A DNA stretch of 64,000 nucleotides from an uncultured Pseudomonadota bacterium (GTDB lineage: Bacteria; Pseudomonadota; Alphaproteobacteria; RF32; CAG-239). A model generated the notes under the pieces. That model had not been told where the DNA came from and made no database searches. It saw nothing but the letters and a program-made list of their open reading frames with translations. The position numbers and the translations under genes are program-made. The stretch lies in the NCBI GenBank assembly GCA_947054505.1, contig CAMRWU010000002.1:70214-134213 (forward strand), read 5' to 3'. Positions 39,940-60,806 of the stretch are shown here, in pieces; the first letter of the stretch is position 1; every line of letters begins with the position of its first letter.

Positions 39940-39949
39940 AATACAATAA

Positions 39950-40395: not shown

Positions 40396-40511
40396 ATTTG
40401 TATTTCAAAAACTCCAGTTTCATTTTAATTATAGATTTCAAAAAACTTGAGATAAAGCAAAATATATTATACATTAAAGCTATTAGAGTAAAATAAAAGG
40501 ATGGTACATAA

Positions 40512-40910: not shown

Positions 40911-40923
40911 ATAAGTTTGGTAT

Positions 40924-41727: not shown

Positions 41728-41732
41728 GATAT

Positions 41733-42206: not shown

Positions 42207-42319
42207 TGTCTATCTACCTTTTGTACATCAATTATCTCTAATATTATTAGTAATCCGCATTTTTTTATTATCAAGGAGATTTTCTTCCAACAGCAGCTTT
42301 TTGAAGAATTTAATAAGAT

Positions 42320-42346
42320 AAGCAATTTCAGTCAGCAAGCCTATTT
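42320..42346. repeat. 27-bp direct repeat, copy 2 (overlaps the last 7 codons of the 240-aa ORF)
   Basis: aagcaatttcagTCAgcaagcctattt. Confidence 0.8.
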
Positions 42347-43050
42347 GTCAGCGTATCATACATTATTTCATCCATATTATTCCAATTTGGTTGTTCAGAT
42401 AGGTCAACATAGTATTTTTTACTCAGTTCTCGCAAATCATACTCTCCTTGATCCCAAATGACAGGATAGCCCAATTTTCTGAGCCGTATAAATGCACGCA
42501 TGGCATAGACAGTATTGCGGTGACACCGAGAAAAATAGAAAACCCATTTGTTAGAGGCATACTGCTCATAATTTTTTTTATCATAGCCTACATTTTTGTA
42601 GTTATAGCCTTGCTTCCATAAAAAGCCCGGATTAAAATTGCCTACAGACGTTTCCCAAGGATGCCCTAAGTGGACATAGTTAAACAACCACCACCTAAAA
42701 TCTTCAGCACTGTCGTGATTGCGGTCAGCTAAAATGCCTTCCGGATGTTCATAGTCTGAATGAAACATTTGCCGACCATCCATTGTCCTTTGAGCAACTT
42801 CCTCTGCTTTCATATCCCTGAAATTGACTAATCTATCCTCATACCCGAAACGCTTGGAAAAACCATTTTCATCACAAAAAGCCAGTTCTATTTCTTTAAT
42901 CAATTCAAAATACTTGTTTAAGGTTAAATCTTTGATGGGTTGTGGAAGTAGACCACGCAATTGCATCTTTAAATATTTATGGGCTTCTTTCCGTTCTTCA
43001 TCTGATAGGCAAAAGCTACCTAAACCAAACACTCTCTTTTTTCTTCCCAT
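42328..43050 (-). CDS. Hypothetical protein
   Basis: 240-aa ORF. Aromatic-rich. No family recognised. Confidence 0.45.
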   Translation of the reverse strand: MGRKKRVFGLGSFCLSDEERKEAHKYLKMQLRGLLPQPIKDLTLNKYFELIKEIELAFCDENGFSKRFGYEDRLVNFRDMKAEEVAQRTMDGRQMFHSDYEHPEGILADRNHDSAEDFRWWLFNYVHLGHPWETSVGNFNPGFLWKQGYNYKNVGYDKKNYEQYASNKWVFYFSRCHRNTVYAMRAFIRLRKLGYPVIWDQGEYDLRELSKKYYVDLSEQPNWNNMDEIMYDTLTNRLAD

Positions 43051-44341: not shown

Positions 44342-45895
44342 ATGCTATTTAATTATACGAAACCAGAGGAGAAAATAAAAGCAGCGGCGTATGTGCGAAT
44401 GTCCACAGAACACCAAAAATACTCGCCGGAAAACCAGATGGCGGCAATCCGTGAGTATGCCAATAAACACAATTACGAAATCATCCAAACCTATTCGGAC
44501 GAAGGTAAAAGCGGACTTAACATCGCCGGCCGAGCATCGCTACAGAGGATGATTAACGATGTAGAAAGCCGCAGCATTCAATTCAAAGCCATATTGGTGT
44601 TGGACGTTACCCGTTGGGGACGTTTCCAAGATGCTGACGAAAGCGCCTACTATGAATTCATCTGCAAACGTGCCGGTGTTCGCGTCCAATATTGCGCAGA
44701 GCAATTTGAAAATGACGACAGCCCGATTTCGACCATCGTTAAAGGTGTAAAACGTACCATGGCAGCCGAATACAGCCGCGAGCTGTCCGGGAAAGTGTTT
44801 ACAGGACAGTCTCGACTGATTACTCTTGGTTATAAGCAAGGAGGCCCAGCCGGATATGGATTGCGGCGTATGCTGATTGATGAACATGGCAATCATAAAG
44901 GGATTTTGCTACGCGGCGAACATAAAAGCATTGCGACCGATCGTGTTATTCTTGTACCGGGACCAGAGGAAGAACAAGAAACTGTTCGTTGGATGTATAA
45001 AGCCTTTGTTTATGAGGGAAAAAGCGAGGGAACAATTGCCGATGAACTCAATCGGCGCGGAATTAGAACAGATCTTGACAGGGAATGGACACGGTCAACT
45101 GTCCGAGAGGTTCTAAGCAACGAAAAGTATATCGGGAATAACATATTTAACCGCATCTCCTATAAATTAAAGATTAGGCGTGTCCGCAATCCAGAAGATA
45201 TGTGGATTAGAAAAGACAATGCTTTTGAGGGAATTGTCGATTCGAGCTTGTTTTTCATGGCTAAGGGCATTTTTGCCGCCCGTTGCCGAAAGCTCACAGA
45301 TGAAGAAATGTTACAAAAACTTAAGGAATTGCAGGATAAACGCGGTTATTTATCCGCTATGATTATTGATGAAGCTGAAGATATGCCCTCCAGCGCCGCT
45401 TATTCTGGACGTTTTGGCGGATTAGTCCGAGCTTACCGATTAATAGGTTTTGATCCCGGCCGAGATTTTCGTTATATTGAAATTAACAAATATCTGCGGG
45501 AATTGCACGAAGACACAATCGAAAATACCATTCAACGGCTTATGAGCTGTGGTGCTGATATTCAGCTGAATGAGACTAAAAACCTTTTGATGGTTAATAA
45601 TATGTTTTCGGCATCATTGGTGATCAGTCGATGCAATTCCTTAAATAATGGAAAATACCGCTGGAAAGTACGGTTTGATACGGTTCTTAATCCTGATGTA
45701 ACCATCGCCATAAGGATGAAAGCCGATAATTCTACAGTTATGGACTATTATCTTCTGCCATCACTTGATTTTAGAATTCCCAATATCCGTTTGGAAGAGC
45801 AAAACACCGATCTACTTGATTCATACCGTTTTGACAATTTGGATTATCTTTATGAAATGGCAAAATGTATTTCTATCAGGGGGCTTTTACAATGA
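44342..45895 (+). CDS. Large serine recombinase (resolvase catalytic domain plus recombinase domain)
   Basis: N-terminal AAYVRMSTEHQKYSPENQ (catalytic Ser). Then the recombinase-domain region ...VKRTMAAEYSRELSGKV... 517 aa. Confidence 0.8.
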   Translation: MLFNYTKPEEKIKAAAYVRMSTEHQKYSPENQMAAIREYANKHNYEIIQTYSDEGKSGLNIAGRASLQRMINDVESRSIQFKAILVLDVTRWGRFQDADESAYYEFICKRAGVRVQYCAEQFENDDSPISTIVKGVKRTMAAEYSRELSGKVFTGQSRLITLGYKQGGPAGYGLRRMLIDEHGNHKGILLRGEHKSIATDRVILVPGPEEEQETVRWMYKAFVYEGKSEGTIADELNRRGIRTDLDREWTRSTVREVLSNEKYIGNNIFNRISYKLKIRRVRNPEDMWIRKDNAFEGIVDSSLFFMAKGIFAARCRKLTDEEMLQKLKELQDKRGYLSAMIIDEAEDMPSSAAYSGRFGGLVRAYRLIGFDPGRDFRYIEINKYLRELHEDTIENTIQRLMSCGADIQLNETKNLLMVNNMFSASLVISRCNSLNNGKYRWKVRFDTVLNPDVTIAIRMKADNSTVMDYYLLPSLDFRIPNIRLEEQNTDLLDSYRFDNLDYLYEMAKCISIRGLLQ

Positions 45896-46386
45896 ATGAA
45901 CAGTTATGCGAAGTTGAAATCAGTAAGATTTTTGTGTTGAATCCACGAGAACGCAACAAACAAATCGCCGGAGAAATCAAGAAAAACATCGAAGATGTCG
46001 GTTTAAAACGGCCAATTACAGTAACACGCAAACAATTCCCGCAAGATGGATACGAGTACGATCTAGTCTGTGGTCAAGGACGTTTAGAAGCATATATAGC
46101 CAATAATCAAACCACAATTCCGGCCATTATTATAAACGTTAGCGAGGAAGATTCTCTGATTATGAGCCTCGTAGAAAATATTGCCCGTAAAAACTACCAA
46201 CCCTATGAACTTTTCAAAAATGTCAAGAAACTCTACGATTCGGGATACACATCAGTGGATATTGCTCAAAAAACCGGATTGGGCAAAGAATATATGAGCC
46301 AAATCATTAAACTACTTAATAAAGGAGAAGACCGACTGCTAAATGCCGTTGAGTGCAACCGCATCCCATTAAATGTAGCGATCTAA
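45892..46386 (+). CDS. ParB/Srx-like nuclease-domain protein
   Basis: ParB box region DLVCGQGRLEA. The ATG overlaps the recombinase stop (ATGA). Confidence 0.55.
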   Translation: MNEQLCEVEISKIFVLNPRERNKQIAGEIKKNIEDVGLKRPITVTRKQFPQDGYEYDLVCGQGRLEAYIANNQTTIPAIIINVSEEDSLIMSLVENIARKNYQPYELFKNVKKLYDSGYTSVDIAQKTGLGKEYMSQIIKLLNKGEDRLLNAVECNRIPLNVAI

Positions 46387-46410
46387 ATTGTAGAAACCCC
46401 GGATAGCGAG

Positions 46411-46761
46411 ATGCAGCGGGTTCTTCAGGAAGCTTACGAACAAAATCTAATCAAAGGCAACAAAATCGGTTATGTAAAGAAGCTAATCGAAGTAAGAAAA
46501 AAGAGCGGCAAGAATTTTCACAGCGGGTTAAAAGCTCATAAACAACTGTCTCCTACTGACCTTAATAAAATATACGAACAGGAAATCAGCAAGAAAATGC
46601 TGCTGATCCGCAAGGCCGACAAAGTAGAAAGCACCCTCATCTTCTTGGTGGAAAGTTTTAAAAAGTTACTCTCCGACAATAATTTCACCAATCTTCTAAA
46701 AGCAGAAAATTTAGAAAAAGTGCCGCAATTTATCTCAGAAAAGGTTAATCCAGATGACTAA
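46411..46761 (+). CDS. Hypothetical protein
   Basis: 116-aa ORF between the two ParB-like genes. Confidence 0.4.
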   Translation: MQRVLQEAYEQNLIKGNKIGYVKKLIEVRKKSGKNFHSGLKAHKQLSPTDLNKIYEQEISKKMLLIRKADKVESTLIFLVESFKKLLSDNNFTNLLKAENLEKVPQFISEKVNPDD

Positions 46762-47644
46762 TCACCAATTATCGCAAGCTTTTGAAAACCACATAGTAAC
46801 GCTGGATGTAAATAGCATCACGTTCTCAAAGGAAATTAACCCGCAGGTACTTGCCTGCAAAAAATTTCAGGTTATTGTCTCTTCTATTAAGGAAGTCGGC
46901 ATCATCGAACCTCCTGTTGTAACCACTAAAAACGGCGGATATTTACTCTTAGATGGCCATTTGCGAATTTCTGCCCTAAAAAAGTTAAATATTCCACAAG
47001 TCAGTTGCCTCTTATCAACCGATGATGAAGGTTTTACCTATAACAAGCACGTCAACCGTTTATCAAATGTCCAAGAGCATAAAATGATTGTTAAAGCGAT
47101 TGAGCGCGGCGTACCTATCGAAAGGCTTGCCAAAGTTTTAGATATGGATCCAGCTAACGTCATCCGTAAAAAAAACTTGTTAGACGGTATTGATCCTGAG
47201 GCATCAGAATTGCTCAAAGATAAAATTATCTCCGGCGGTGTTTTTACATATTTGAAAAAGATGAGACCACAACGACAGGTGGAAGCAGCTAATTTAATGA
47301 ATGATATGGGCAACTATACCGCAAAATTTGCCCGTTCAATCTGGTTGGCAAGCTCAGATAAGCAACTGTTAAATCCGCTAAAACGAGCAAATACCTTGGA
47401 TGTTGAGAAGTTAGGACGGCTGGAAAGCGAAGTATCCAAGGTTCAGGGCGAATATAAAATCATGGAAGACAAATACGGAATCGATGTTTTAAACCTTACT
47501 CTTGTGAAAGGTTATATTCGGAGCATTTTTGCAAACCAGCACGTCTGCGATTATCTAAAAGCCTATGAACCAGACATTTACCGCCAGTTTGAAACAATTG
47601 TGGAGTTGGAAAATGTTAATGCACTAAATGACAGACCATTTTAA
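46754..47644 (+). CDS. ParB-like N-terminal domain protein (second copy)
   Basis: GIIEPPVVTTKNGGYLLLDGHLRISALKKL resembles the ParB N-domain box. Confidence 0.55.
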   Translation: MTNHQLSQAFENHIVTLDVNSITFSKEINPQVLACKKFQVIVSSIKEVGIIEPPVVTTKNGGYLLLDGHLRISALKKLNIPQVSCLLSTDDEGFTYNKHVNRLSNVQEHKMIVKAIERGVPIERLAKVLDMDPANVIRKKNLLDGIDPEASELLKDKIISGGVFTYLKKMRPQRQVEAANLMNDMGNYTAKFARSIWLASSDKQLLNPLKRANTLDVEKLGRLESEVSKVQGEYKIMEDKYGIDVLNLTLVKGYIRSIFANQHVCDYLKAYEPDIYRQFETIVELENVNALNDRPF

Positions 47645-48556: not shown

Positions 48557-49732
48557 CTATACTGCCTGCAAATAAGAATTTTGACTGTACTCGATTAAAA
48601 GAGAAATAGCTTTTCTAATCTGAGAACGAACAGAAGAGGATAAGCATTGAAATTCTACGCATCGCTCAAGTTGATATAAATAAAAATCATCAATAGATTT
48701 AGATGGTTGTAATATTTTAAATGCCCTCTGAACTCTTGAATAGGTATCACTTAACGTTCGTTCTGAATAATGATATTTTTGCTCTACCCATGATAAAAAA
48801 ATAGATTTACCAACACTGTACTGTGAAAGATTTACCATAGCATCATCTTTAATAAACGACATTAAAATTTTAGCAACAAATTCCGCCAATTTTACTGGAA
48901 CAGCATTTCCTATCATTTGTTCTATTTCTGTTTTAGAACCTTCCCATTTGAAATCAACAGGAAATGTTTGAATTAAAGCCCTTTCTAAAAGAGTTAGTGC
49001 CCTAATTTCTTCATTCAGAGCACATGCATCATTGGGATGTCCAGGATATCCTTTGGGAACCGGGCGATTTACACCTCTAATTGTTGGAGATGGTTCATCA
49101 ATAGAAAAAATACCCCGTCTATCATAATTCCGAGGATGCCTATAGTAATACTCAAAACCTAAAGAATTTCCAAAATAATCACGAAGCGTCATTTCTTTTG
49201 TATATAGATTTTGAGAAATCAAATCTAAAGCAAAACCATCATCTTTTCCTTTTATCCCCATACAAAAAAAACGCTTCCTTTTTTGAGGGACACCACAAAA
49301 ACTTGCATCCAACACAATTTCCGTCAAACCATATCCTGCTTCCTTAAAAATCTTTCTTGCAATACCATAAGCATGACTTTTTTGTGCTCGATCAACATTT
49401 TCCATCAAAAAATACTTAGGATTGATTTCTTTAATTATATTGGCATAAGCCTCCGTTAAGTTGGCTCTATCCGCTTCGACCCTCTTCCCTGCATGCGAAA
49501 AATCTTGGCAAGGCGGTCCACCGATAATTACCTCAGGCTTTAATGTTGATATTTCTTTCACAGCTTTGCTAATTTGAGACAGATCAGTCGAAAATACAGG
49601 ATGCCTGAAATTTTTTCTGTAACATTTTGCAGCAACCTCCCAAAATTCAAAGGCTCCAACAAGCTGGAAACCAGCATTTTCAAAACCTTTAGATAATCCC
49701 CCACATCCTGCAAATAAATCAACAACTTTCAT
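48557..49732 (-). CDS. DNA (cytosine-5)-methyltransferase
   Basis: Motif I DLFAGCGG, IV GGPPCQDFS, VI FLMENV, VIII QKRKRFF, X IGNAVP. Confidence 0.85.
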   Translation of the reverse strand: MKVVDLFAGCGGLSKGFENAGFQLVGAFEFWEVAAKCYRKNFRHPVFSTDLSQISKAVKEISTLKPEVIIGGPPCQDFSHAGKRVEADRANLTEAYANIIKEINPKYFLMENVDRAQKSHAYGIARKIFKEAGYGLTEIVLDASFCGVPQKRKRFFCMGIKGKDDGFALDLISQNLYTKEMTLRDYFGNSLGFEYYYRHPRNYDRRGIFSIDEPSPTIRGVNRPVPKGYPGHPNDACALNEEIRALTLLERALIQTFPVDFKWEGSKTEIEQMIGNAVPVKLAEFVAKILMSFIKDDAMVNLSQYSVGKSIFLSWVEQKYHYSERTLSDTYSRVQRAFKILQPSKSIDDFYLYQLERCVEFQCLSSSVRSQIRKAISLLIEYSQNSYLQAV

Positions 49733-49791
49733 TTTTTCCCTTTGCATTTTAAAATATTTAGATATAGGCTCATAATAGATTTAATTTTAAA

Positions 49792-49837: not shown

Positions 49838-50893
49838 ATGTCAACAGGACTATTTGGAATAGAACATTCGAATCGAATGCCTCAGGACCACTGGGGAAAG
49901 AATTGTTTCAATTCAAGTTTTCCTACTGCTATGGCTTGTTATATGATGAAGAATAATATACCAGCCGTTTATAATAAAGTAGTTATGGATGAAACAGGAA
50001 ACCTAAAAGTGGTTTCAACCGAAATTCCTATTCAAAACGTTTTTAACTGTAACACTGTTGATTTTTGCGAACTTGATTTCCATTTTGAGACAATCTACAA
50101 AGATTATCAGAATTTTTCTTTTGATCCAATTGACGGGATTGATCTTGTTGTAAAAAACACAAAAGGTGAGTACCTATCACCTTTAGAAGTTAAATTAACC
50201 GTTTTACCCACAGATTCTACAAGCCGAAAACCTGAAGACAAGTGGGGATGCGAATTAGTTATAAGATCCGCAACCACCTCATATTGTGCTTTAGGTATGT
50301 TTGATGCAGTAAAAAAAGAAACTATGTCTGTGCGAGAAATTTTTGAAGATAATTGTGCTTCCATTCAAAATTGGGATAATGATTTTGAAATGACACATAA
50401 AACACCAAATTTAAGCCAATGCTTGGATACTTTTCAGAAAAAATATTATTTACGCCAAAAACCCCTTTTACTGCAAGCTATATGGAAAACTCAAGGTAAA
50501 TCTCCACTTTTAGCAGAACAAGCCTTTGACATTGTGGTATGGAGCGATTACGCTTTTTCTCGCTTATTTATAGATAGCTCCTATAATACAGAAGATACTA
50601 TGAGTAGGCCGATGCGTGCGACCGCACGTTTAGCGAGATGTTTGTGGGAATTGAGTAAATCAAATAAAATTAGATTAATGGATATTTACCGCCAGATGGC
50701 ATTTGGAAATCAAACAGATAAGGAGTTTGCAATTAATGGCTCAAAATGGAGAAAATACGTAACATCAGACAGGATACTTAGCCCTAAATTATCAAAAGAT
50801 GTCATTCAAGAAATTATAGAACCTGGATATATTGAGCGGTTAAGTCCTGAAAGACGATTTGATCAGTCACTATATTTTACTTATAGAACATAA
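49838..50893 (+). CDS. Putative type II restriction endonuclease cognate to the C5-MTase
   Basis: Divergently paired with the MTase. DGIDLVV...PLEVKL fits a PD-(D/E)xK pattern. No specific enzyme recognised. Confidence 0.45.
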   Translation: MSTGLFGIEHSNRMPQDHWGKNCFNSSFPTAMACYMMKNNIPAVYNKVVMDETGNLKVVSTEIPIQNVFNCNTVDFCELDFHFETIYKDYQNFSFDPIDGIDLVVKNTKGEYLSPLEVKLTVLPTDSTSRKPEDKWGCELVIRSATTSYCALGMFDAVKKETMSVREIFEDNCASIQNWDNDFEMTHKTPNLSQCLDTFQKKYYLRQKPLLLQAIWKTQGKSPLLAEQAFDIVVWSDYAFSRLFIDSSYNTEDTMSRPMRATARLARCLWELSKSNKIRLMDIYRQMAFGNQTDKEFAINGSKWRKYVTSDRILSPKLSKDVIQEIIEPGYIERLSPERRFDQSLYFTYRT

Positions 50894-50896: not shown

Positions 50897-51307
50897 TTAA
50901 AAATGTTTGAGGACACCTTTAATTGCAGAAGAACTAATATTAGGTGTTCTTTGTAGTTGGACGACTTTTTTACCATTTCTGTAACAATATTCTATTGCAT
51001 TGAGAAAGCCAGAATGATTTTGGTCTGCACCAACGGCAAAAATGTCAAAATCAGTACACTTTATTATTTCATTAACATCCGTATAAGGAATAACTTCATC
51101 TACACAACGCAGTGCCCTGACCAATTCACATCGAACATCTGTCGAATAAAAAACATCCGCCTCTGGTTTATATTTTTTGATGAATTCTGATTTTTGCACA
51201 GCTACAATCAAATATCCATCAGAAACAATATTTTTTGCCTGTTCAAAAAGTTTTAAATGCCCATAATGAAAATAATCAAAAACACCTACTGTCAAAATTA
51301 TAGTCAA
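50897..51307 (-). CDS. Cytidylyltransferase of the TagD/CCT family (CDP-glycerol, CDP-choline or related CDP-alcohol synthesis)
   Basis: GVFDYFHYGHLKLFEQAK (HxGH motif). 136 aa. Confidence 0.7.
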   Translation of the reverse strand: MTIILTVGVFDYFHYGHLKLFEQAKNIVSDGYLIVAVQKSEFIKKYKPEADVFYSTDVRCELVRALRCVDEVIPYTDVNEIIKCTDFDIFAVGADQNHSGFLNAIEYCYRNGKKVVQLQRTPNISSSAIKGVLKHF

Positions 51308-51308: not shown

Positions 51309-52286
51309 TTATTTCTCCACAGACAAACTAAAATTATTTATTAATTCTTGATGTTGCTGTAATAAGTCTATGCGAATGCTTGGAGAAAAAACACCATGAG
51401 CAGCACAAAAATTATCTGGCCATCCCATATAGTCACCATAGAATGCTGTTAAATAATAATCAGGATGACTAGGAATATAAACCTCAACCCCCATCCACAT
51501 TGATTTTTTCAATGGAAACACCCAATCATAATCTATCAAACAACGATTTCTGACACTAGTTTCAACACCCAAAAACAGAAAACCGTCTTTAGCTTTCTGA
51601 GGAACAAGTTTTTCATCACGTAATTTCAAAGCTGTTTGAATATACTCTTTCGAAACAGGAGCTTCATGATGTAGCCATTTATCATGATTAAAATCGCTTA
51701 ATGATTTAATGTAGTTAAGTGTTTCCACAAAATTTTCATATTCTTCTCCCCTCAAAGAGGCTCTTTTTCCTCCTTGGTCAATGGGAAATACATCTACCCA
51801 TATATGCAATTCTTTATAATAAAGACGTATAATATCTCCAACTGTAAAGAAAAAACCACCAGAGGTAAATTCGGCTAATAAAATTTCAGGAAGTTTTTCA
51901 TAATCTTCTCTCATTACACAGATATCAATATCATCATCCCATGGAATAAAACCATTATGCCTAATATACCCAATTAATGTTCCTGAATCTATCCACCATC
52001 TCAATTTATGTTGTTTTATTACTTCTGAAAAACGTTTTAATATCGCAACTTCTGACTTTTGAACAAGCTCTAAAACACCCGAAGCAGGAGGTATATCACT
52101 AACGCATACCGTTGTTTTTATCAATTTCTCTAAAAAATTTAACCGGTCAAGGCAAATATCTAATTTTGACTGAAGAATGGCATAATCAAGAGAATTGTTT
52201 TTTTTCAAGAGCTTAGATCTAATATTATGCCTTATACCTTTGAATGGAACAAATGAACAAATAAAGTTAACCCAAAATTTTTTCAT
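51309..52286 (-). CDS. LicD-family phosphotransferase (transfers phosphocholine or another phospho-alcohol from a CDP donor to a glycan)
   Basis: IPWDDDIDICVMREDY conserved LicD aspartate cluster. 325 aa. Confidence 0.7.
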   Translation of the reverse strand: MKKFWVNFICSFVPFKGIRHNIRSKLLKKNNSLDYAILQSKLDICLDRLNFLEKLIKTTVCVSDIPPASGVLELVQKSEVAILKRFSEVIKQHKLRWWIDSGTLIGYIRHNGFIPWDDDIDICVMREDYEKLPEILLAEFTSGGFFFTVGDIIRLYYKELHIWVDVFPIDQGGKRASLRGEEYENFVETLNYIKSLSDFNHDKWLHHEAPVSKEYIQTALKLRDEKLVPQKAKDGFLFLGVETSVRNRCLIDYDWVFPLKKSMWMGVEVYIPSHPDYYLTAFYGDYMGWPDNFCAAHGVFSPSIRIDLLQQHQELINNFSLSVEK

Positions 52287-54118
52287 TATTCACTATCCTT
52301 TGCTTCAGGAGAAAAATTTCCTCTGATTTCTTTTAATTTTTCAATACAGGCATCTATATTGTTAAAAGGAAGTTTTGCTATTTCAGTATCCGGAAGCTCC
52401 CACCATTTAAGAGCCATCAGTTCTGAAATAATTTGAGGAGAAAATCTGTAACGAATAACTCTTGCAGGCACTCCTGCTAATACAGCATATGGAGGAGTGT
52501 TGTGCGTTACAACGGCATTAGATGCTATTATGCATCCATCTGCAACAGAAACGCCATCTTTAATAATAGTATTATTACCAATCCAAACATCATTTCCTAT
52601 GTGTGTAGGATCGTTCGAATATGGATAAATAACCTGATCTTCTGTGATTTTTTTCAATTCAACATATTGGAAAGGCGAAGTTGATAGCCAATTGGTTGGA
52701 TGTTGTGACGGACCAACAGCCACATTTTGTCCGATGGAACAAAAAGCTCCTACCGTACTTTCCGGATGCATCCGAATAAAATTAGCTCCGTAATAAGAAT
52801 GCCTTCCAAGCCAATATTCTTTTATAGTTCCTATTTTTTGCTTAATTTTGTTTTTGATAATATTGTGTTTAATTTTATGGCGCAATTTTCTGGATGGAAT
52901 AAACGCACATAGCAAACTGACTAAGAACTTTTTTAAACTTAGATATTTATTATAGCGTTTAGTACGATAGGGATAAACAGTTTCCTTAATCAGAGAGTCT
53001 AACTCTGGTAAAACCAGATTTGCATCAAATCTGCTAATGTTAGCAAATCCAGTTTTAATCATATCTTGAATGGGAATTTTATTTTCCCAGACTTTGGTCA
53101 TTAAATGGCATAAATCATCACTATCACCAACCGAAAACAACAAGCCAGCATTTCCGTTAAGTAAAATTTCTTTAGCACCATCTGGTGCATCACTAGCAAT
53201 ATTAAGGGTCTTAAGTAATGCCCCTTCGATTAAAACAATGCTTAACCCTTCACTTGGAGATGATAATATATTGCCAGTTGCATATTTAATATACCCTAAG
53301 GGATTATCTAAAATCCCTGTAAAAATAATGTTTTTATCTAATTTATATTTTTTTACGATTTGTTCGTATTCTGCTCGTTTTTTACCATCACCAATAAAAT
53401 ATATCTTTGCATCGGTATGTTTTTTTGAAAATTTACGAAAAGCCTCTATTACCGTTAAATGATCTTTATCTTCATGCATCCGTCCGACAAAAACAAAATA
53501 CTTTTCACTTGCTGGAGGATGGGGGGCATCATTTGCCAGCATTTTTATTTCTTCAGTATCAATTAAATTATACATCCATATAATTTTATCAGAATACTGA
53601 GGTGCTGACTTTAACAATTTTTCTTTGAAAGAATCTATTAAACAAACAAATTTATCATAACAAGTTAAAAATCTTTTATTATTTTTATCTAATTTCTCAC
53701 TATATGGAACAAAACTAGAATGATACCAACCAATCTTTGGAAGATTTAATTTTTTTAATATTGGATAGAAAGAACAGTTAAAATAATCTACTATTAAATC
53801 TTGATTTGATAAATATTTATGGATCAAAAATCTGTGCTTTATCCTAAAAAAGAAACGTCTAATTTTCCATATTTTTTTAGCTAAAAAATTGCGTGGTTTT
53901 TCGCCCAATGCATCAAATTCATTAGAAATTTCTATTAAAGGAATCCCCGTTTTTGCAAAAAAATCCAAAAAATATTTTTCATAAACAGGATTATTTACTA
54001 AAACTGTAAACTCATATTCGGACATATGGCACATTTTATCTAAAATTCGGACTAAACATTTTTCAATGCCTCCGGTTATAATTTGTTGCATACAAAATGT
54101 AACTCTAATTTTTTTCAT
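52286..54118 (-). CDS. Fusion of a glycosyltransferase family 1 domain with a hexapeptide-repeat (left-handed beta-helix) acetyltransferase domain
   Basis: GT4 E-x7-E region SSPSEGLSIVLIEGA. C-terminal VGAFCSIGQNVAVG...NDVWIGNNTII hexapeptide repeats. Confidence 0.65.
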   Translation of the reverse strand: MKKIRVTFCMQQIITGGIEKCLVRILDKMCHMSEYEFTVLVNNPVYEKYFLDFFAKTGIPLIEISNEFDALGEKPRNFLAKKIWKIRRFFFRIKHRFLIHKYLSNQDLIVDYFNCSFYPILKKLNLPKIGWYHSSFVPYSEKLDKNNKRFLTCYDKFVCLIDSFKEKLLKSAPQYSDKIIWMYNLIDTEEIKMLANDAPHPPASEKYFVFVGRMHEDKDHLTVIEAFRKFSKKHTDAKIYFIGDGKKRAEYEQIVKKYKLDKNIIFTGILDNPLGYIKYATGNILSSPSEGLSIVLIEGALLKTLNIASDAPDGAKEILLNGNAGLLFSVGDSDDLCHLMTKVWENKIPIQDMIKTGFANISRFDANLVLPELDSLIKETVYPYRTKRYNKYLSLKKFLVSLLCAFIPSRKLRHKIKHNIIKNKIKQKIGTIKEYWLGRHSYYGANFIRMHPESTVGAFCSIGQNVAVGPSQHPTNWLSTSPFQYVELKKITEDQVIYPYSNDPTHIGNDVWIGNNTIIKDGVSVADGCIIASNAVVTHNTPPYAVLAGVPARVIRYRFSPQIISELMALKWWELPDTEIAKLPFNNIDACIEKLKEIRGNFSPEAKDSE

Positions 54119-54122: not shown

Positions 54123-55961
54123 TTAGTACCCGACTTTTATTCGAAACGCATTAAGAAACGACAATTCAAATATTTTGTGTTTTAAATAAGGGAAAAAATT
54201 AATTTCAATTTTTTTCAAACCTCTAGTTTTTATTGATAATGGTTTTGAAATGATTAACCCCAATCGTTGGGCTGGAGTTAACCATGCAAGTTTCTTTATT
54301 GATCCAACTTTCCAAAATGGAATTGGTGCAGAAAAGAGAGGAACATAAATGCTATTATCTGCATATGGAGATTTTTTTACTGAAAACATTTCCATAATAT
54401 CTTGTTTTGCAGGCTTATTTACATAGATATCCAAAAGTATCAGTGAATTTAATGGAGAAAAATAAATATCTTTGCCACCAAATTTATTAAAGACATCTTG
54501 AACAAAATCCATCACGCCTTTTTCTATTTTTTGATAAATTTTTTGACGGAATAACTCTGCTTCAGAAACGGATGTCTTTCGCACCGGCTTCCCATAGTGT
54601 AATGTAATAATAGGATTCTCAGGAGACGAAAAAATAAGTTCTATTAAGTCACATTTATAATCTTTTACAAAAAGATCTCTTATTTCAGCTGAAAAATAAT
54701 CACGGTGTTCTGCATCATACACACATTTTTGACCAGAAAGAGTTAATACATAAAATCCAATTGTTTTCGTGTGAGACTCTTTTTCAATAAGGCGTTGCCC
54801 TGATAATTGACCGCTAATACTATCTACAACTCCAATTATGTTAGAATGAGATGTTAATTTTTTAATATATTCTCCATAACCTGTTCGTTCTTTTTCCTCT
54901 CGAGCCAATTTTCTAAATTCATCTACATTCTTTTCGATAAATTTCTGGTATGATAAATTTCCGGGATTTTTATGAAAATACTCACAAACAATTTTAGGTT
55001 GTTCTTTTGATAATGGATTATAATCCAAATTCGCTGTATAATTCAGTATACGGGGAGCATATACATAGCTCGATTTGATATCCTTACTAAACATCTTAAA
55101 AACTTTTTCCATAAGATATCCATCGCGAGCTATAAATAAAATATTGTCTAATCCGTTACAACGAGCAGTTTCATATATCCAACGAACATAACTATATACA
55201 ACCGGACCTGCATATTTATACCCAAAATCTTCCCAATAATCACCCGTTGTTTGTTTCTGCGAGGCTAATGCCGTAGTTATTGACGCACCCAAATAACTCT
55301 TTTGGTGTTTATAAAATTTTGCAAATTTTTTGTTTTGATGCAGAAAAGTTTCCGAAACCTTAGAATAGAAACAGGCTTTAATACCATGCTTTTTGGCTTG
55401 ATAAAAATCAGATTTCTTATTATCTCCGATGTGTAGTATTTGATGAGGCTTTACATTTAAATCCTGAACCATATAGCTATACATATCGCCTCTATCTTTA
55501 CGCAGATTTAATAAATTAGATAAATAAATTTTGGAATAATCTGCAATTTTGTTCTTTTTAAGTACTTTTTCAATAAATTGAATAGGCAGATACATATCAC
55601 TGCAAATAACAACTTTTTTTCCCGAGTTGAGTGCATAATCATAAATTTGTTTTATTTCAGGATTAATTACAAGCGATTGAAATTCCATATCCATCTCGGC
55701 TTGTTTTATATTATCAAATTCCGGAAGCATTTTGTATATATCATCAATATTCGCCTCTTTTTTTGTTCCATATTTCTGATAGAACAAAGTTTCCGCATTT
55801 TTCCGTTGTTCAGAAAATCCCGGACAATCGTATATCTTTTCCAAATGCAAAAATAAATCTTCAGGTTTCATATATGGTCGCAACAAAAGTGTATCAAAAA
55901 TATCAAATGATACGATAGAAACCTTATCTACATATCTATAAATATTATGCAATTTCATCAA
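54123..55961 (-). CDS. HAD-superfamily domain protein of a polysaccharide-synthesis cluster, function unclear
   Basis: Motif I VSFDIFDTLLLRP and motif IIIb HIGDNKKSD. A second HAD-like segment around FIARDGYL. Confidence 0.5.
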   Translation of the reverse strand: MMKLHNIYRYVDKVSIVSFDIFDTLLLRPYMKPEDLFLHLEKIYDCPGFSEQRKNAETLFYQKYGTKKEANIDDIYKMLPEFDNIKQAEMDMEFQSLVINPEIKQIYDYALNSGKKVVICSDMYLPIQFIEKVLKKNKIADYSKIYLSNLLNLRKDRGDMYSYMVQDLNVKPHQILHIGDNKKSDFYQAKKHGIKACFYSKVSETFLHQNKKFAKFYKHQKSYLGASITTALASQKQTTGDYWEDFGYKYAGPVVYSYVRWIYETARCNGLDNILFIARDGYLMEKVFKMFSKDIKSSYVYAPRILNYTANLDYNPLSKEQPKIVCEYFHKNPGNLSYQKFIEKNVDEFRKLAREEKERTGYGEYIKKLTSHSNIIGVVDSISGQLSGQRLIEKESHTKTIGFYVLTLSGQKCVYDAEHRDYFSAEIRDLFVKDYKCDLIELIFSSPENPIITLHYGKPVRKTSVSEAELFRQKIYQKIEKGVMDFVQDVFNKFGGKDIYFSPLNSLILLDIYVNKPAKQDIMEMFSVKKSPYADNSIYVPLFSAPIPFWKVGSIKKLAWLTPAQRLGLIISKPLSIKTRGLKKIEINFFPYLKHKIFELSFLNAFRIKVGY

Positions 55962-55962: not shown

Positions 55963-56802
55963 TTAAGCTTTCATTGAATATAATGGAATAAAACCAAACA
56001 AATACACTTTGGACTTATTGGGCATTTTTTTTATTTTTATCAAAGGAATAAAACCAAACAGCTTGAGCCAGAGTCGCCTCTTACAAAGCGGTTGTTTTAT
56101 TTGTTGATATAAATAAGGATATTCTTTAGCCGCAAAACATCTACATAATGCATCAGCATTAATCATTTTCTCTTTTTGGAGATGTGATGTGTTTCCATCA
56201 AAATTGCGATATTTTACCAAAACTTCCTGAATATTGTGAAACATTGTATATTTCAGCAATTGCAAAACAATCTTATAATCTTCAGCCGGAGAATATTCTT
56301 CTTCATACCGGATTCCATACTTATTTAAAACTGATGCGCGCACCATCATCGCAGTATGAGCAATAACATCTGCCTGCATTAAGGAAACTTTAATGTCCAA
56401 ATTGTTTTCTGGGTGAGTAGTTACTTTCTTTTTAGGAAAATGTTCAAGTTGACCACTGATAACACCTACCTCAGAATGGGTTTCTAAAAATGAAACTTGC
56501 TTTTCTAGTCTTGTTGGTACAGAAATATCATCGTGGTCAAAAACAGCTAAATACTCACCTTGAGCCATATCAATCAGTTTATTGCGGCTAGCAGAAATAC
56601 CCAATTTTTTTTCATTTTTAAAATACTTAATCCGTTTATCATTGTAAGATTTAACAATCTTCTCTCTATCATCTTCGGGACAATCATCTAAAATCAAAAA
56701 CTCGAAATCTAAAAAAGTCTGCTTCAAAATGCTTTCAATAGCTTCACGCAGATAAATTTCCTGAGTTTTATAAATCGGCATTAACACAGACACCTTAAAC
56801 AT
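55963..56802 (-). CDS. Glycosyltransferase family 2; first gene of the 5-gene operon
   Basis: VSVLMPIYKTQEIYLREAIESILKQT and DDCPEDD. The start could be the ATG at 56802 or 56808, or the TTG at 56814. Confidence 0.7.
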   Translation of the reverse strand: MFKVSVLMPIYKTQEIYLREAIESILKQTFLDFEFLILDDCPEDDREKIVKSYNDKRIKYFKNEKKLGISASRNKLIDMAQGEYLAVFDHDDISVPTRLEKQVSFLETHSEVGVISGQLEHFPKKKVTTHPENNLDIKVSLMQADVIAHTAMMVRASVLNKYGIRYEEEYSPAEDYKIVLQLLKYTMFHNIQEVLVKYRNFDGNTSHLQKEKMINADALCRCFAAKEYPYLYQQIKQPLCKRRLWLKLFGFIPLIKIKKMPNKSKVYLFGFIPLYSMKA

Positions 56803-56837
56803 AGCCATCCCCAATATTCGTCCAAAATTTAAAACAA

Positions 56838-57005
56838 CGAACGTTAAATAGAGTCAAGAGAGGTTCTTAAGTGTTATGTACCTACCGTCTTGGAAAATAA
56901 AAGTTTTTTTGAGTACAGATTAATAAAATACTTGATATATATTTTTTATTTAGATATACAAAAAACTAACGTTCATTAAATGCAATCATTTAACGTTCGA
57001 TAAAT
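56838..57005. promoter_or_regulatory. Candidate invertible promoter segment (inverton) bounded by 12-bp perfect inverted repeats
   Basis: IR-L is CGAACGTTAAAT (56838..56849). IR-R is ATTTAACGTTCG (56988..56999), within the 18-bp palindrome-like ATTTAACGTTCGATAAAT. A tandem half-site CTAACGTTCATT lies at 56966..56977. Inside, TTGATA-17 bp-TATACA (56932..56960) currently points away from the operon. A serine invertase gene is adjacent. Confidence 0.45.
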
Positions 57006-57053
57006 TTTTAGGGTAAAAAATAAAGAATACCCCTTTGATAAATAGAGATTTTT

Positions 57054-57644
57054 TTATTTTCTTTTCAGAAAATTATAGATTGTTGTAATGCTAACTCCTA
57101 AAATTTTTGCAACTTGTGTTTTGGGAACACCTTTGTGTAATAAGTTAATAACTTCTTGTTCTTTACCATCAAGAATATGCTTTTTATTTTGACTACCAAA
57201 TTCTCGACCTAATTTCCGACCTGTAGCTCTGATTCTGTGCAAAGCCTCTTTAGTCCTTTGACTGATAAGATTTCTTTCTATTTCCGCTGACAACGAAAAA
57301 GCAAAAGCCAAAACTTTGCTTTGAATATCTGCCCCGAGCCGGTAATTATCTTTAATCGTCCAAACTTGAGCCTCTTTTTTCATGCAAAGATTGAGAATTG
57401 TCATTATTTGCAAAAGGTTTCTGCCGAGGCGAGAAATTTCCGAGCAAATCAAAATATCATCTTTCTTGAGTTTTTTTAAGATTTTGCCTAATTTTCGCTT
57501 TTCAAAATCTTTAGTGCCGCTAATGGTTTCTGTTATCCATCTATCAATCTTAATTTGTTCTTTCTCACAAAAGTTATTGATTTCAAATTCTTGATTTTCA
57601 AGAGTTTGTTTGTCTGTCGATACGCGAACATATCCGTAAATCAT
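57054..57644 (-). CDS. Serine site-specific DNA invertase/resolvase (Hin/Gin/Mpi type) with a C-terminal HTH
   Basis: MIYGYVRVSTDKQTLENQ catalytic-Ser motif. C-terminal GVPKTQVAKILGVSITTIYNFLK is an HTH. AAGGAG RBS before the ATG at 57644. Confidence 0.8.
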   Translation of the reverse strand: MIYGYVRVSTDKQTLENQEFEINNFCEKEQIKIDRWITETISGTKDFEKRKLGKILKKLKKDDILICSEISRLGRNLLQIMTILNLCMKKEAQVWTIKDNYRLGADIQSKVLAFAFSLSAEIERNLISQRTKEALHRIRATGRKLGREFGSQNKKHILDGKEQEVINLLHKGVPKTQVAKILGVSITTIYNFLKRK

Positions 57645-57745
57645 AGTGTTCTCCTTAAAATTTGATACAAAAAAAGGCCTCTCGTTAGTCATAACGAGAG
57701 GCACACATTTCATCATATATTATGTTATTGCAGTCAATTGGCCTT

Positions 57746-57979
57746 TTATTTACCAGTTTTTTCACTTCTGACAATTTCTACAATGCCGAATGCAGAAACT
57801 GCCAGCGCGACAATATGTTCCACCAATTCAGGACTGATTGCCACGCCAAGACCGGATAACAGACCGATTAAACCACGCCACGTGGATGGTTGGTTGAGTT
57901 TTAAGAGTTCAATAAGTTTAAGCATTTTCATTCCTTTCATAAAAAAGCCCTGTTCGGGCGGGTTAACAAGCAAGCTCAA
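57746..57979 (-). CDS. Small membrane protein, holin-like
   Basis: 77 aa, two hydrophobic helices (WRGLIGLLSGLGVAI and HIVALAVSAFGIVEIV), charged C-terminus. Confidence 0.45.
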   Translation of the reverse strand: MSLLVNPPEQGFFMKGMKMLKLIELLKLNQPSTWRGLIGLLSGLGVAISPELVEHIVALAVSAFGIVEIVRSEKTGK

Positions 57980-58376
57980 TCCCTCGCTGAATTATTTCGT
58001 CAGAATATGGCTGAATACCATTTTCCATACGGATGACGGCTTTAATAAACACAGTCAGCACACCACGCTCCTCAATATCTATTATTGTGTCCGGATAAAC
58101 ACCGAATTGTTTAGCAACCGACTGGATATAGGCGGTGGTCTGGTTTTCATTCGGTGGTGCGTAACGGCTGATAATCTGTCGAACCGTGTTTAAACCGTGA
58201 ATTTTCTTATAATTGACAAGAACCTTTGCCAATGCTCGGATGCCGTAAATCGAATCTGTAAAAACACAAAAGGCAGGATCTATTTTCCTGCCATCTGGGT
58301 TTAAGCCATGCCAATTTGCACCGTGCCGGATATTTCCGGGATTATTGTTTCTTATGCCTCTTGGTCGTTGATCCAT
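57963..58376 (-). CDS. Phage protein, possible endolysin by position
   Basis: 137 aa between two small TM proteins. Conserved-looking RNNNPGNIRHG...W.G motif. Family not identified. Confidence 0.35.
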   Translation of the reverse strand: MDQRPRGIRNNNPGNIRHGANWHGLNPDGRKIDPAFCVFTDSIYGIRALAKVLVNYKKIHGLNTVRQIISRYAPPNENQTTAYIQSVAKQFGVYPDTIIDIEERGVLTVFIKAVIRMENGIQPYSDEIIQRGIELAC

Positions 58377-58569
58377 TGTGTATCTCCCATATCATTTCCC
58401 TTAAATCGTCAATTTTAAGTTCAAGCCGGTTGATGTGCACCTGTGTCGCATATTCCCGAGCAACCTGAACTTTAAAATCGCTGAGTTCCTTGCGTATTTC
58501 GCCAAACTTATAAACCAGCCAAACGAAAGCCGGAACGCAGACTATCTGTAAAAACTGCAACCAATCCAT
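58342..58569 (-). CDS. Small N-terminal-TM/coiled-coil protein (holin or spanin-like)
   Basis: 75 aa. The TM helix is FLQIVCVPAFVWLVYKF, followed by a charged coiled coil. Confidence 0.4.
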   Translation of the reverse strand: MDWLQFLQIVCVPAFVWLVYKFGEIRKELSDFKVQVAREYATQVHINRLELKIDDLREMIWEIHNGSTTKRHKKQ

Positions 58570-60806
58570 TATGTTTTGTAAACCTCCTCACTTTCATTAA
58601 CACAAGATATTTCCACGGTATCGCCACGTGGGCGTACTCCGATGACCTTTGCCATCATTGACATCTTGCCCTTTGTGCCAAAAGCAAAATGCGTTCGTTC
58701 TTTGGCTGTGCCGGTGTAAATTTCAAAATCCGGCGTTGTTTGCAGAACGGCCTCGCTATCCACCGCACCTCGGACGACTTGATAAACATCGCTCATAGAA
58801 CCATCAAGCAACCTAAAACTGATAAAATGCTCTTCGTCTGGTTTCCAAATCAGGCTTTCCGAGAGCTTCAGCATATTGCCGGAGATTGACAACACTTCGC
58901 CGCCTTGTCCCCATTCGCACATATCGTGAGTTATGCTGATTAAATCGCCGTATGTCGGTATCAGCCCCTCAAGCTCTGTGCTAAATGTGATGTATTTTCG
59001 CCGATAACGGTTGCAGGCGCACATATAATAGCCTTCTCGTTCAGCGTGAGCTTTATCTGTGCAACCGAACAAATCCACATTGGCGGGATTTTCTTCGGTG
59101 CTGTCAGGAAGTTTGGTTACGACATCGTCATATTTCCAGTATTTATTTGAGAAATATTGCACTTTGACACTATCCGCCGTATCTTCAGACGGCATGACAT
59201 ATTCTATTGAAAAGCTGTCTTTAATAATGTTTCTCGGTGTAAACATTGCGGTAGGTATGGTTTTCGGCTCATCACGGATAATCCGTACCATCCCGGATTG
59301 CAAAATAGGCAAAGCTCTGCCACACCGCGCAACTTTTGACACTGCCTCCCAAATTGTGGTCGCGCTATCAAAAATCCCGTCAAAATAATCGCCGCGGCTT
59401 TCCCAAACCTTGTCCAACTGTTCCAATTCCGCTAGATGTATGCGTTCATCGGGCAGTTTGCCGCCATATTGGGCTTTTAAGATGTCGGCAATGCTCCAAG
59501 CTATGGAACGACAAGCAACCGGCTCGCTCCAACCGGTTGCGTTGTTCCATTTCTTAACCTTGCGAGTAATAATGGCGTTGATTTTTCGGCTGGAATTGGA
59601 TGACAAATTGTTGGTTGCCCGCATTTTGATTGCTAAAAGCGCCATTTCACCAAAAGTTGTGGGCTTTTCCATATAGCCTTTGAGACTTTCCCAATAGATA
59701 GCGTGAGCCGCGCGGGCGCTGGTATCTTTAGTATCAAGGCGAGTAGCTCGGACTTCATAACGTCCCATTGCGACACTATAATTATATGTAAGGCGAATTG
59801 GCTTGTTTTGTGCCGCCGAATAAGTCTCCGAACCAAGCACAAACCAGTCTCCCAGCGGATTACCGGAATCATCAACGGTTCTGGCTTCCACTTTCCATTG
59901 AATGGTTTTAGAAGAGAGTCCGCCGCTGTCATTGGCATAATACAAACCAGCGCTCATCACTATATCAACGCCGATTTTATCAATTTTTGTATCTTCAGGA
60001 TTGACTATGAAACCGCCGGTATATTCATCTTTCATTAGTTCTTGGCCGGCAATTTCCGCCGCCATAACAACATTCGGATTAAAAAGCGTAACCTCTTGGT
60101 TAGGTTCGACAATCTCGTATTCCACCTCTGCAAAACTACTGATTGGCGTATCATCAATGCGAAGTTGCTCTACCTCACAATAACCTTGGGTCAAGACATG
60201 GAGCTGGTGCAGATACTGCTCGTTATTTTTATATTCGGTATAAGGTTTAGCGGCAAAATCAGGGTAAATAATATGCCGACCATATAAAACCGGAATGACA
60301 CCGCCGAGTTTGGCTTGATTACCGCGTGCATTTAAGGAATAAGTCGGGCTTGTTTCCATAGATGACGAAGCGTAAGACGAACTCAAGCTACTGGATGGCG
60401 AGGGAATAACTGCGTTAACCAACATTGAGCCACCCACACTGACAGCGGTTGCCGCGGCGGCTCCAGCCAAAGTTCCATAAGCACCGGCGGCAATTCCGCC
60501 GGTGTAATATGCAGCCACCATAACGGCCACTGACAACACGACTTTTAACGGATTAGAACCACCACCGCCGCCACCTTGCGGCAAACAAAGAAAAGCAAGA
60601 TGGTCTGTCATTTTGGGGCAGAAGTTCCAATATCGCCGTAATAATGGTTCACCGTTTAAAAAACAGATAAATGGCAAGTTTTGCGGATTGATGTTATATT
60701 CAGCAACAATTTCCGCCACGTTCATTTGTTTCAGGCAATAAAAAACCTCGCTTTGCACGAGGTTGAAAGGATTTTGTATTTTAACTATTTGCATTTTAAA
60801 TTCCAA
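58569..60806 (-). CDS. Phage tail protein (host-specificity / central tail fibre J-like), tentative
   Basis: 745 aa, downstream of an NlpC/P60 tail-assembly-like gene. Gly run GGGGGG. Confidence 0.5.
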   Translation of the reverse strand: MEFKMQIVKIQNPFNLVQSEVFYCLKQMNVAEIVAEYNINPQNLPFICFLNGEPLLRRYWNFCPKMTDHLAFLCLPQGGGGGGSNPLKVVLSVAVMVAAYYTGGIAAGAYGTLAGAAAATAVSVGGSMLVNAVIPSPSSSLSSSYASSSMETSPTYSLNARGNQAKLGGVIPVLYGRHIIYPDFAAKPYTEYKNNEQYLHQLHVLTQGYCEVEQLRIDDTPISSFAEVEYEIVEPNQEVTLFNPNVVMAAEIAGQELMKDEYTGGFIVNPEDTKIDKIGVDIVMSAGLYYANDSGGLSSKTIQWKVEARTVDDSGNPLGDWFVLGSETYSAAQNKPIRLTYNYSVAMGRYEVRATRLDTKDTSARAAHAIYWESLKGYMEKPTTFGEMALLAIKMRATNNLSSNSSRKINAIITRKVKKWNNATGWSEPVACRSIAWSIADILKAQYGGKLPDERIHLAELEQLDKVWESRGDYFDGIFDSATTIWEAVSKVARCGRALPILQSGMVRIIRDEPKTIPTAMFTPRNIIKDSFSIEYVMPSEDTADSVKVQYFSNKYWKYDDVVTKLPDSTEENPANVDLFGCTDKAHAEREGYYMCACNRYRRKYITFSTELEGLIPTYGDLISITHDMCEWGQGGEVLSISGNMLKLSESLIWKPDEEHFISFRLLDGSMSDVYQVVRGAVDSEAVLQTTPDFEIYTGTAKERTHFAFGTKGKMSMMAKVIGVRPRGDTVEISCVNESEEVYKT

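Follow-up and report, generated by a model that had tools for sequence, protein, structure and literature searches.

Invertible promoters in front of surface-glycan genes are a hallmark of gut Bacteroidales, and the locus described here raises the question of whether an alphaproteobacterium carries a switch of the same kind. The locus lies in a 64-kb stretch of contig CAMRWU010000002.1 from an uncultured alphaproteobacterium (assembly GCA_947054505.1), hereafter the window, in which the gene of a small serine DNA invertase is separated by a 239-bp gap from a five-gene glycan cassette. Based on a comparison of this gap with its counterparts in related loci from other assemblies (given as L numbers below), we consider it likely that invertase, gap and cassette form a self-contained phase-variation module, an Mpi-type inverton, located where a prophage of a gut alphaproteobacterium ends.

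The module depends in the first place on its recombinase and on the hairpin that separates the recombinase gene from the phage genes upstream:

57054-57644, minus strand: Mpi-family small serine DNA invertase, 196 amino acids (aa), with the catalytic motif YVRVSTDKQ and a C-terminal helix-turn-helix (HTH)
57677-57702, minus strand: strong terminator-like hairpin of 11 pairs followed by a T-run, closing the phage lysis/tail operon just upstream of the invertase

A first-pass annotation of this DNA had called the protein a Hin/Mpi-type serine invertase, and the assignment is borne out by the NCBIfam model NF009949 ('master DNA invertase Mpi family serine-type recombinase'), which is passed with 311.4 bits against a cutoff of 272, residues 1-195 being aligned to the 203-position profile. 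Further, Pfam places a Resolvase domain at residues 2-143 and HTH_7 at residues 163-190, and the PHROG match of the protein, PHROG 125, is described as 'DNA invertase'. Phage Mu Gin (4m6f, 3uj3) aligns over the full length (residues 1-191, E=7e-14), although this similarity is remote at 55 bits and resolvases score nearly equally, those of gamma-delta and Tn3 also aligning at ~1e-11. The catalytic serine and arginines are intact, with both YVRVSTDKQ and SRLGR kept, and the open reading frame (ORF) is likewise intact, starting from an ATG at 57644 with the ribosome-binding site AAGGAG upstream. A longer ORF of 220 aa is unlikely because the terminator hairpin (57702-57677) would fall inside it. 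As the hairpin leaves only ~30 nt before the ATG, the invertase would probably be expressed by read-through or from a weak promoter. The identical protein was found in 506 blocks of a public metagenome assembly collection, in samples with names resembling human-gut cohorts. Its public annotation is unreliable, since exact copies are labelled 'integrase' in NCBI viral records of metagenome-assembled genomes (MAGs), and the 208-aa proteins placed in its 90% cluster are ParB-like, unrelated proteins and were rejected as relatives.

The next question is where such an enzyme would act. The 12-bp perfect inverted repeat reported earlier for the gap (CGAACGTTAAAT at 56838-56849 and ATTTAACGTTCG at 56988-56999, with arms 138 bp apart) was found at exactly those positions, together with an additional copy, CTAACGTTCATT, at 56966-56977, and the right arm is extended, as had also been noticed, to a palindrome-like 18-mer (56988-57005, palindromic at 7 of 9 pairs). 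Among 2000 dinucleotide-shuffled versions of the gap (239 bp, 25% GC), 1.3% contain a perfect inverted repeat of at least 12 bp by chance, and the exact octamer TAACGTTC has four copies in the 64-kb window, three of which lie within 160 bp at the switch. Taken alone, these statistics are suggestive, and it is the comparative data that settle the question. All three repeat copies can be written as 12 + TT + 12, and crossover is confined by the observed junctions to a shared 8-bp core. The parts of the switch are the following:

56984-57009, unstranded: crossover site 1 (the right repeat), a 26-bp dyad AATCATTTAACG-TT-CGATAAATTTTT with the shared 8-bp core TAACGTTC at 56991-56998
56960-56985, unstranded: crossover site 2 (the 'tandem half-site'), AAAAAACTAACG-TT-CATTAAATGCAA, with the core at 56967-56974, in the same orientation as site 1
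56828-56853, read on the minus strand: crossover site 3 (the left repeat), CTCTATTTAACG-TT-CGTTGTTTTAAA, with the core GAACGTTA at 56839-56846, inverted relative to sites 1 and 2
56847-56966, unstranded: large invertible segment of 120 bp with the promoter, present in both orientations among assemblies
56975-56990, unstranded: small 16-nt segment (spacer s) between the cores of sites 1 and 2, the position of which marks the rarer whole-switch inversion

As direct repeats, sites 1 and 2 have a centre-to-centre distance of 24 bp, and a tandem site at the same spacing is present in another lineage (P0022). The six half-sites of the three sites all approximate ATTTAACG. The copy at 56966-56977 had been taken for a tandem half-site; the copy is there, but it is part of a full third crossover site, by which the two-state switch originally envisaged becomes a four-state one. 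The layout of 12 + 2 + 12 would be that of hix and gix sites, which are 26-bp dyads with a 2-bp asymmetric core, and crossover probably takes place at the AA/TT dinucleotide inside GAACGTTA, which is preferred on the sole ground of its better dyad symmetry. The sequence ARACGTWCGT, named in the first-pass annotation as the core of the B. fragilis capsule-promoter repeats on which Mpi acts, is matched at 9 of 10 positions by site 3 and at 8 of 10 by site 1; if this consensus holds, the repeat core would resemble that of Mpi.

Elsewhere in the 64-kb window, no further crossover site was found beyond one chance-level match to 11 of the 12 repeat positions, ACTTAACGTTCG at 48749-48760 on the plus strand in a C5 methylase gene, which shares TAACGTTCGT with site 3 and contains the fourth TAACGTTC octamer (48752-48759). 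This match was rejected and treated as chance because it offers one good half-site only and because the count of such matches is as chance predicts.

Whether the segment inverts can be read from natural assemblies. The switch was compared in 14 sequences with identical invertase, comprising the window and 13 fetched loci, and the arrangements are written in the reading direction of the invertase, where X is the 8-bp core GAACGTTA, X' its complement, s the 16-nt spacer, BIG the 120-bp promoter segment, F1 the flank next to the invertase, and F2 the flank next to the operon:

State 1, F1-X-s-X-BIG-X'-F2: the window, L009 and L102
State 2, F1-X-s-X-BIG'-X'-F2: not observed in the 14-sequence census
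State 3, F1-X-BIG'-X'-s'-X'-F2 (large segment flipped): L003
State 4, F1-X-BIG-X'-s'-X'-F2: L001, L002, L004-L008 and L090-L092 (10 loci)

Three of the four arrangements predicted for nested inversions were thus found, with every junction inside the shared core GAACGTTA, and inverting the window in silico at the proposed crossover points yields the common arrangement save for a few single-nucleotide polymorphisms. The window, L009 and L102 have the 16-nt piece on the side of the invertase, and L001-L008 and L090-L092 have it on that of the operon, reverse-complemented beyond the large segment, which indicates that site 2 has already been used for crossover. The flip of the large segment can also be followed in pairs of loci, including pairs of sister lineages outside this set, as the number of matching positions when the segments are aligned in reverse complement or directly:

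L003 and L008 (identical invertase): reverse complement 117/120, direct 67/120
L119 and L122 (sister lineage, invertase 88% identical): reverse complement 120/120, direct 70/120
L014 and L015: reverse complement 99/123, direct 66/123
L013 and L011: reverse complement 100/125, direct 70/125

The flanks of L119 and L122 are identical at 60/60 and 150/150 positions, and the 2 kb upstream at 2096/2097; the flip aside, the two sequences are the same over more than 2.3 kb, and the flip is therefore younger than any point mutation. In yet another lineage, the 91-kb contig L125 stops exactly in the first crossover core and the N-run of scaffold L124 begins at the same base, as is expected of an assembler when one sample holds both orientations. 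The prediction of an invertible segment is thereby upheld, both orientations being present in independent assemblies with identical or near-identical invertase. At the level of assembled sequences, DNA rearrangement at the switch is established, and ongoing inversion within single populations is strongly suggested. The spacer follows sub-lineage and the flip of the large segment varies among otherwise identical sequences, which suggests that promoter-only inversion is the commoner event, probably frequent, and whole-switch inversion probably rare.

The census of states is small and was de-duplicated by gene neighbourhood. A look-up of the conserved 29-mer flank in metagenome_contigs and viral_contigs gave three further loci only, so that the census stays small, and a look-up of the endolysin-like gene upstream of the invertase added one locus (L102), with an assembly break upstream of the invertase. 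The independent assemblies L008 and L009 begin, and L103 from the same sample as L009 ends, in the same 55 bp between the endolysin-like gene and the invertase (57891-57945). The stretch is thus a branch point of the assembly graph, which suggests that the module of invertase and cassette has more than one upstream context within a sample. Additionally, the outer half-site of site 1 (57000-57004 in the window; compared in L001-L009 and L090-L092) exists in the versions ATTTATCG, ACCTAACG and ATCTAACG amid otherwise identical flanks, with 2-3 clustered substitutions in 5 nt that inversions do not explain.

If the segment inverts, the consequence depends on what it carries. Two promoter-like elements are located at its ends:

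56932-56960, plus strand: sigma-70-like TTGATA-N17-TATACA, facing the 3' end of the invertase gene in the window
56851-56856, minus strand: TTGACT, a hexamer resembling a -35, located at the opposite end of the large segment and facing the operon in the window orientation

The first of these had been proposed as the promoter, pointing away from the operon and hence OFF, and the proposal gains from the block being conserved in all related switches checked, as TTGAYW-N17/18-TATAAG or TATACA at 5-8 nt from the crossover core and in either orientation. It faces the operon in L003, L010, L011, L012, L015, L026 and L124 and the invertase in the remaining checked switches, and the counterpart in L122, TTGAGA-N16-TATAAA as read from its sequence, also faces the operon. 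Across the three best-sampled lineages, the invertase is faced in 33 of 35 sampled sequences. The promoter call rests on this conservation and not on consensus strength. As the block of the window faces the invertase and points away from the operon, the window copy is most likely OFF. In this state the promoter would run antisense into the invertase gene and, we speculate, might stabilise OFF. The second element had been suggested as part of a hybrid promoter spanning the left repeat; the hexamer is present and recurs in L008 and L003, which have the type-2 switch, but as no good -10 follows it in any state, a weak hybrid promoter is no more than a candidate function. A Bacteroides-type promoter, TAnnTTTG, was considered and rejected, as the best match found by eye was 7/8 and lacked a -33 element at the proper spacing. 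The conserved block is instead of the sigma-70-like kind, and the switch therefore suits a proteobacterial host.

In the mechanism that we propose, the invertase would bind three predicted sites in the 239-bp gap that follows its own gene, each a 26-bp dyad like hix. As the compared arrangements show, recombination between sites 3 and 2 flips the 120-bp promoter segment alone, and recombination between sites 3 and 1 flips the whole switch, with the 16-nt spacer changing side. Since each single inversion reverses the promoter, the four arrangements make up a closed cycle in which two would be OFF and two ON. With TTGATA-N17-TATACA facing the operon, the five-gene glycan cassette would be transcribed, and a lysogen population would become heterogeneous for a phage-encoded surface modification, by which superinfection, immune recognition or both may be affected. 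We infer that the invertase is the catalyst of the flips from its adjacency and from the repeat sequence changing together with the invertase lineage.

Several observations weigh against this mechanism. The evidence for mixed orientations inside one population comes from between-sample differences and assembly breaks only, another recombinase could catalyse the flips in place of this invertase, and the data fix crossover to the 8-bp core and not to one dinucleotide. A consensus promoter scan called no promoter in the switch, having missed TTGATA-N17-TATACA because the -10 hexamer TATACA is without the usually invariant final T. Further, there is no strong terminator between the invertase gene and the operon, so that read-through could allow orientation-independent expression. 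The position of the small segment tracks sub-lineage, with 3/3 window-type sequences in state 1 and 10/10 L002-type sequences in state 4, and the rare whole-switch inversion could thus be a historical rather than an ongoing event. Finally, the abundant P0126 lineage has one orientation in 11/11 assemblies. The last two of these points, along with the one orientation shared by 9 of 10 sequences in the P0022 lineage, are what would be seen if the inversions were real but rare, the fixed relics of a barely active invertase, and the locus were a strain polymorphism that is constitutively OFF (or ON) and not a working switch. We hold this to be unlikely, because the flip between L119 and L122 is so recent, because hundreds of contigs share an intact, identical ORF for the invertase, and because assemblies break exactly at the crossover site; moreover, a strong bias to one orientation is also what consensus assemblies of a mostly-OFF switch would give.

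The remaining two alternatives accept the sites or the block and assign them another role. In the first, which appears very improbable, the sites would be mainly regulatory or serve resolution, as a res-like array or an operator by means of which this recombinase or another HTH protein represses transcription or resolves phage or plasmid multimers, and inversion would be a side reaction. Three adjacent dyad sites do resemble the three-subsite res of Tn3 and gamma-delta, with whose resolvases the invertase aligns at ~1e-11, the prophage has ParB/RepB-type partition genes, and sites 1 and 2 are direct repeats just 24 bp apart. However, site 3 runs opposite to sites 1 and 2, the products seen in the assemblies are inversions, and the sites lie downstream of the recombinase gene and not in its promoter, all of which departs from the res of Tn3 and gamma-delta; in addition, the protein scores above the cutoff of the Mpi model with its best alignment to Gin, and the flipped segment contains a conserved promoter-like block. 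The second, that the segment has no operon promoter but a block for antisense autoregulation of the invertase, or places a terminator or other leader element while the operon is transcribed from elsewhere, would agree with the bias of 33 in 35 towards the invertase gene, the imperfect -10 and the missing strong terminator between invertase gene and operon, but it is hardly credible given that the block faces the glycan genes in L003, L010, L011, L012, L015, L026, L122 and L124, that the same scan called no other consensus promoter between the switch and the operon start, and that the layout is as in classical invertible promoters.

Returning to the promoter switch as the preferred reading, the genes that it would control are the following:

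55963-56802, minus strand: GT2 glycosyltransferase, the first cassette gene (Pfam PF00535; EpsE/TuaG-like in NCBIfam, below cutoff)
54123-55961, minus strand: 612-aa protein with an N-terminal HAD phosphatase domain
52286-54118, minus strand: fusion of a group 1 glycosyltransferase (Pfam Glycos_transf_1) and a hexapeptide-repeat acetyltransferase
51309-52286, minus strand: LicD-family phosphotransferase (Pfam PF04991, 112.6 bits)
50897-51307, minus strand: small cytidylyltransferase, closest to glycerol-3-phosphate cytidylyltransferase (NCBIfam match below cutoff)

All five genes carry the domains that had been named for a five-gene decoration operon, and the GT2 protein additionally has a weak match to a GtrB-like O-antigen conversion PHROG. 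The role of the cassette is probably to decorate a surface glycan, with a phospho-alcohol or an acetylated sugar.

The module is bordered on both sides by genes that bear on the nature of the element carrying it:

58569-60806, minus strand: gpJ-like central tail fibre gene, upstream of the invertase
57963-58376, minus strand: 137-aa endolysin-like gene, directly upstream of the invertase, with a 75-aa ORF also in the block 57963-60806
49838-50893, plus strand: HindVP-type restriction endonuclease, in a low-GC stretch that separates the glycan cassette from the prophage end with ParB/RepB and integrase
48557-49747, minus strand: C5 cytosine methylase, in the same low-GC stretch as the HindVP-type enzyme

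Upstream, on the strand of the invertase, are phage tail genes (DUF1833, NlpC/P60 and the gpJ-like central fibre), followed by the 75-aa ORF and the 137-aa endolysin-like protein, and the same gene order of tail, lysis and invertase was found in L001-L007, L011, L015, L027 and L114-L123. The exact invertase is present in viral MAG records named 'Caudoviricetes sp.' and also in one IMG/VR contig. The region of invertase and cassette has 30-35% GC, compared with ~43% in the chromosome and 45% in the tail genes, and this contrast, together with the gene context, identifies the module as the distal 'moron' end of an integrated prophage. The mobile context proposed in the first-pass annotation is thus retained, but the tail and lysis genes and the Caudoviricetes records make it specifically a prophage end rather than an island. 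An inversion of tail-fibre genes in the manner of Mu or P1 was rejected, no meaningful inverted repeats being present between the invertase and the tail genes. A large serine recombinase of 517 aa (PHROG 'integrase') and, after it, ParB_N/RepB-type partition proteins are encoded at 44342-47644 and probably constitute the integration and maintenance end of the prophage, and the GC skew changes sign at ~44-46 kb. The first 43 kb of the window are ordinary alphaproteobacterial chromosome, including a Brucella-type CckA match, and with this match and other chromosomal genes on the same contig the alphaproteobacterial host claimed earlier is corroborated. Within this part lies a second low-GC region (30000-42500, 31-38% GC) with genes for glycan biosynthesis, namely a nucleotidyltransferase, a UDP-glucose 6-dehydrogenase and a GT4-type glycosyltransferase, and with a tRNA-Pro (33496-33572); no Mpi-type site was found in this region.

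How widely is the design distributed? Relatives of the invertase at 65-90% identity are abundant in MAGs of gut Alphaproteobacteria, and the next tier, at ~64-67% identity, comprises very many homologues from Bacteroidota, Treponema, Akkermansia and others. The conserved layout consists of the invertase stop, ~50-70 nt, a repeat pair around ~80-130 bp, and glycan genes, the repeat sequence being lineage-specific. Strong repeats of 15-29 bp around 100-130 bp were found directly after the invertase stop in the proteobacterial loci L012, L015, L017, L026, L027, L043 and L051, and none directly downstream of the invertase in the sampled Bacteroidota loci, which fits the published action of B. fragilis Mpi in trans. 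In several lineages (L011, L015, L027, L114-L123), although not in every one, the invertase comes after a gpJ-like tail gene. The mechanism had been noted as not seen described for this group, and the literature searched, with its incomplete coverage, contained neither an account of such a module from gut Alphaproteobacteria nor one of a glycan-controlling inverton on a prophage. The layout of invertase, switch and glycan genes is, by contrast, common in the assemblies of gut Alphaproteobacteria and thus not rare in nature, and the element itself is prevalent in metagenomes of the human gut. The principle is familiar, and the packaging and the host are new to the searched literature.

The closest described system is Mpi of B. 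fragilis, a chromosomal 'master' invertase acting in trans on 13 scattered regions, seven of which are polysaccharide promoters (PMC4747536, PMC5903667). The likeness to Mpi (FinA) and the PSA-PSH loci includes the family, by the curated hidden Markov model, an identity of 64-67% between the present invertase and Bacteroidota homologues, and short inverted repeats around a promoter segment of ~100-200 bp upstream of glycan biosynthesis genes; as in the Mpi family, a promoter segment beside a glycan locus is inverted here, both orientations occurring in natural assemblies with glycan genes downstream. Unlike B. fragilis Mpi, the present invertase adjoins its target in cis, on a prophage and in an alphaproteobacterial host, and this cis-linked adjacent layout suggests local action. 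The switch itself also differs in its sigma-70-like promoter in place of TAnnTTTG, in its three crossover sites and in the lack of UpxY/UpxZ genes.

Phage-borne invertases are known from the Hin/Gin/Cin/Pin group, which acts on the Salmonella H segment, the Mu G segment and the P1 C segment, the invertase of Mu and P1 being encoded on the phage beside the tail genes. Shared with this group are the small serine invertase with its full-length Gin alignment and the position of the gene beside the invertible DNA; the sites, which can be written as 26-bp dyads, may be a further likeness. Gin, Cin and Pin invert coding segments of tail fibres and thereby change phage host range, whereas the DNA flipped here is a promoter for host glycan genes and no repeats flank the tail genes. 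A further parallel is offered by the gtr modules of P22 and Shigella phages, in which a temperate phage likewise carries glycosyltransferase 'moron' genes near late or integration genes and expression is heterogeneous in the lysogen population, as it would be for the present module, and to which the weak GtrB-like PHROG match also points. The phase variation of P22 gtr is epigenetic (Dam/OxyR) and does not involve DNA inversion, and the present cassette is larger than gtr operons and has other enzyme types (LicD, cytidylyltransferase, HAD and acetyltransferase). Multi-site switching also has precedents: Min of p15B and the R64 shufflon shuffle coding segments, and Tsr19 and Rci are tyrosine recombinases. 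In the large-capsule switch of B. fragilis, the inverted repeats that bound an invertible promoter are reported to be duplicated (PMC3090145). With the present switch these systems share a number of crossover sites above two, by which nested inversions and additional states become possible. The present switch is set apart in that a serine invertase would act on three sites within 180 bp, with only a promoter and a 16-nt spacer being rearranged.

Beyond switching, the comparison touches on how the module may change its cargo. At least two different glycan cassettes are found next to the identical invertase. Compared across the region corresponding to 56800-57950 of the window, the cassette types of L002 and L008 are ~98-100% identical up to site 1, ~80% identical within the switch (19-27/30 per alignment window) and unrelated past site 3, and from this loss of identity across the switch, the seams of cassette exchange would lie at the recombination sites. 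In many related switches, the first gene past the inverton encodes an invertase paralogue of ~200 aa that is 22-31% identical, and the examples listed here come from loci outside the window:

L003, 4858-5451: invertase paralogue
L011, 4785-5387: invertase paralogue
L015, 5269-5871: invertase paralogue
L017, 6873-7451: invertase paralogue
L026, 6937-7704: invertase paralogue

The paralogue is without the catalytic arginines and in 3 of 5 cases also without the serine (for example, YVRVSTDKQ is replaced by YINTKGRYAS), the C-terminal HTH is kept, and it is also found in loci that pair the identical invertase with an alternative cassette. From these features, it could be a site-binding regulator expressed in the ON state or a lock of the switch. 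It is tempting, but rather doubtful as a whole, to view the module as a mobile phage-borne plug-in that would combine a four-state device with context-differing states, crossover sites that serve as cassette seams, and a dead paralogue that biases or locks the switch; the two ON and two OFF states would then differ in their leader or antisense context.

If the preferred reading holds, the enzyme family that serves the surface-glycan switches of gut Bacteroidales would have the same role in prevalent uncultured Alphaproteobacteria of the human gut. The compact set of invertase, switch and cassette on a temperate phage would link lysogenic conversion to stochastic ON/OFF expression by DNA inversion. 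The four state-specific junction sequences can be used as ready markers for following surface variation in existing metagenomes, and with its small size (~180 bp, three sites and an enzyme of 196 aa) the switch is also a candidate building block for the engineering of multi-state switches.

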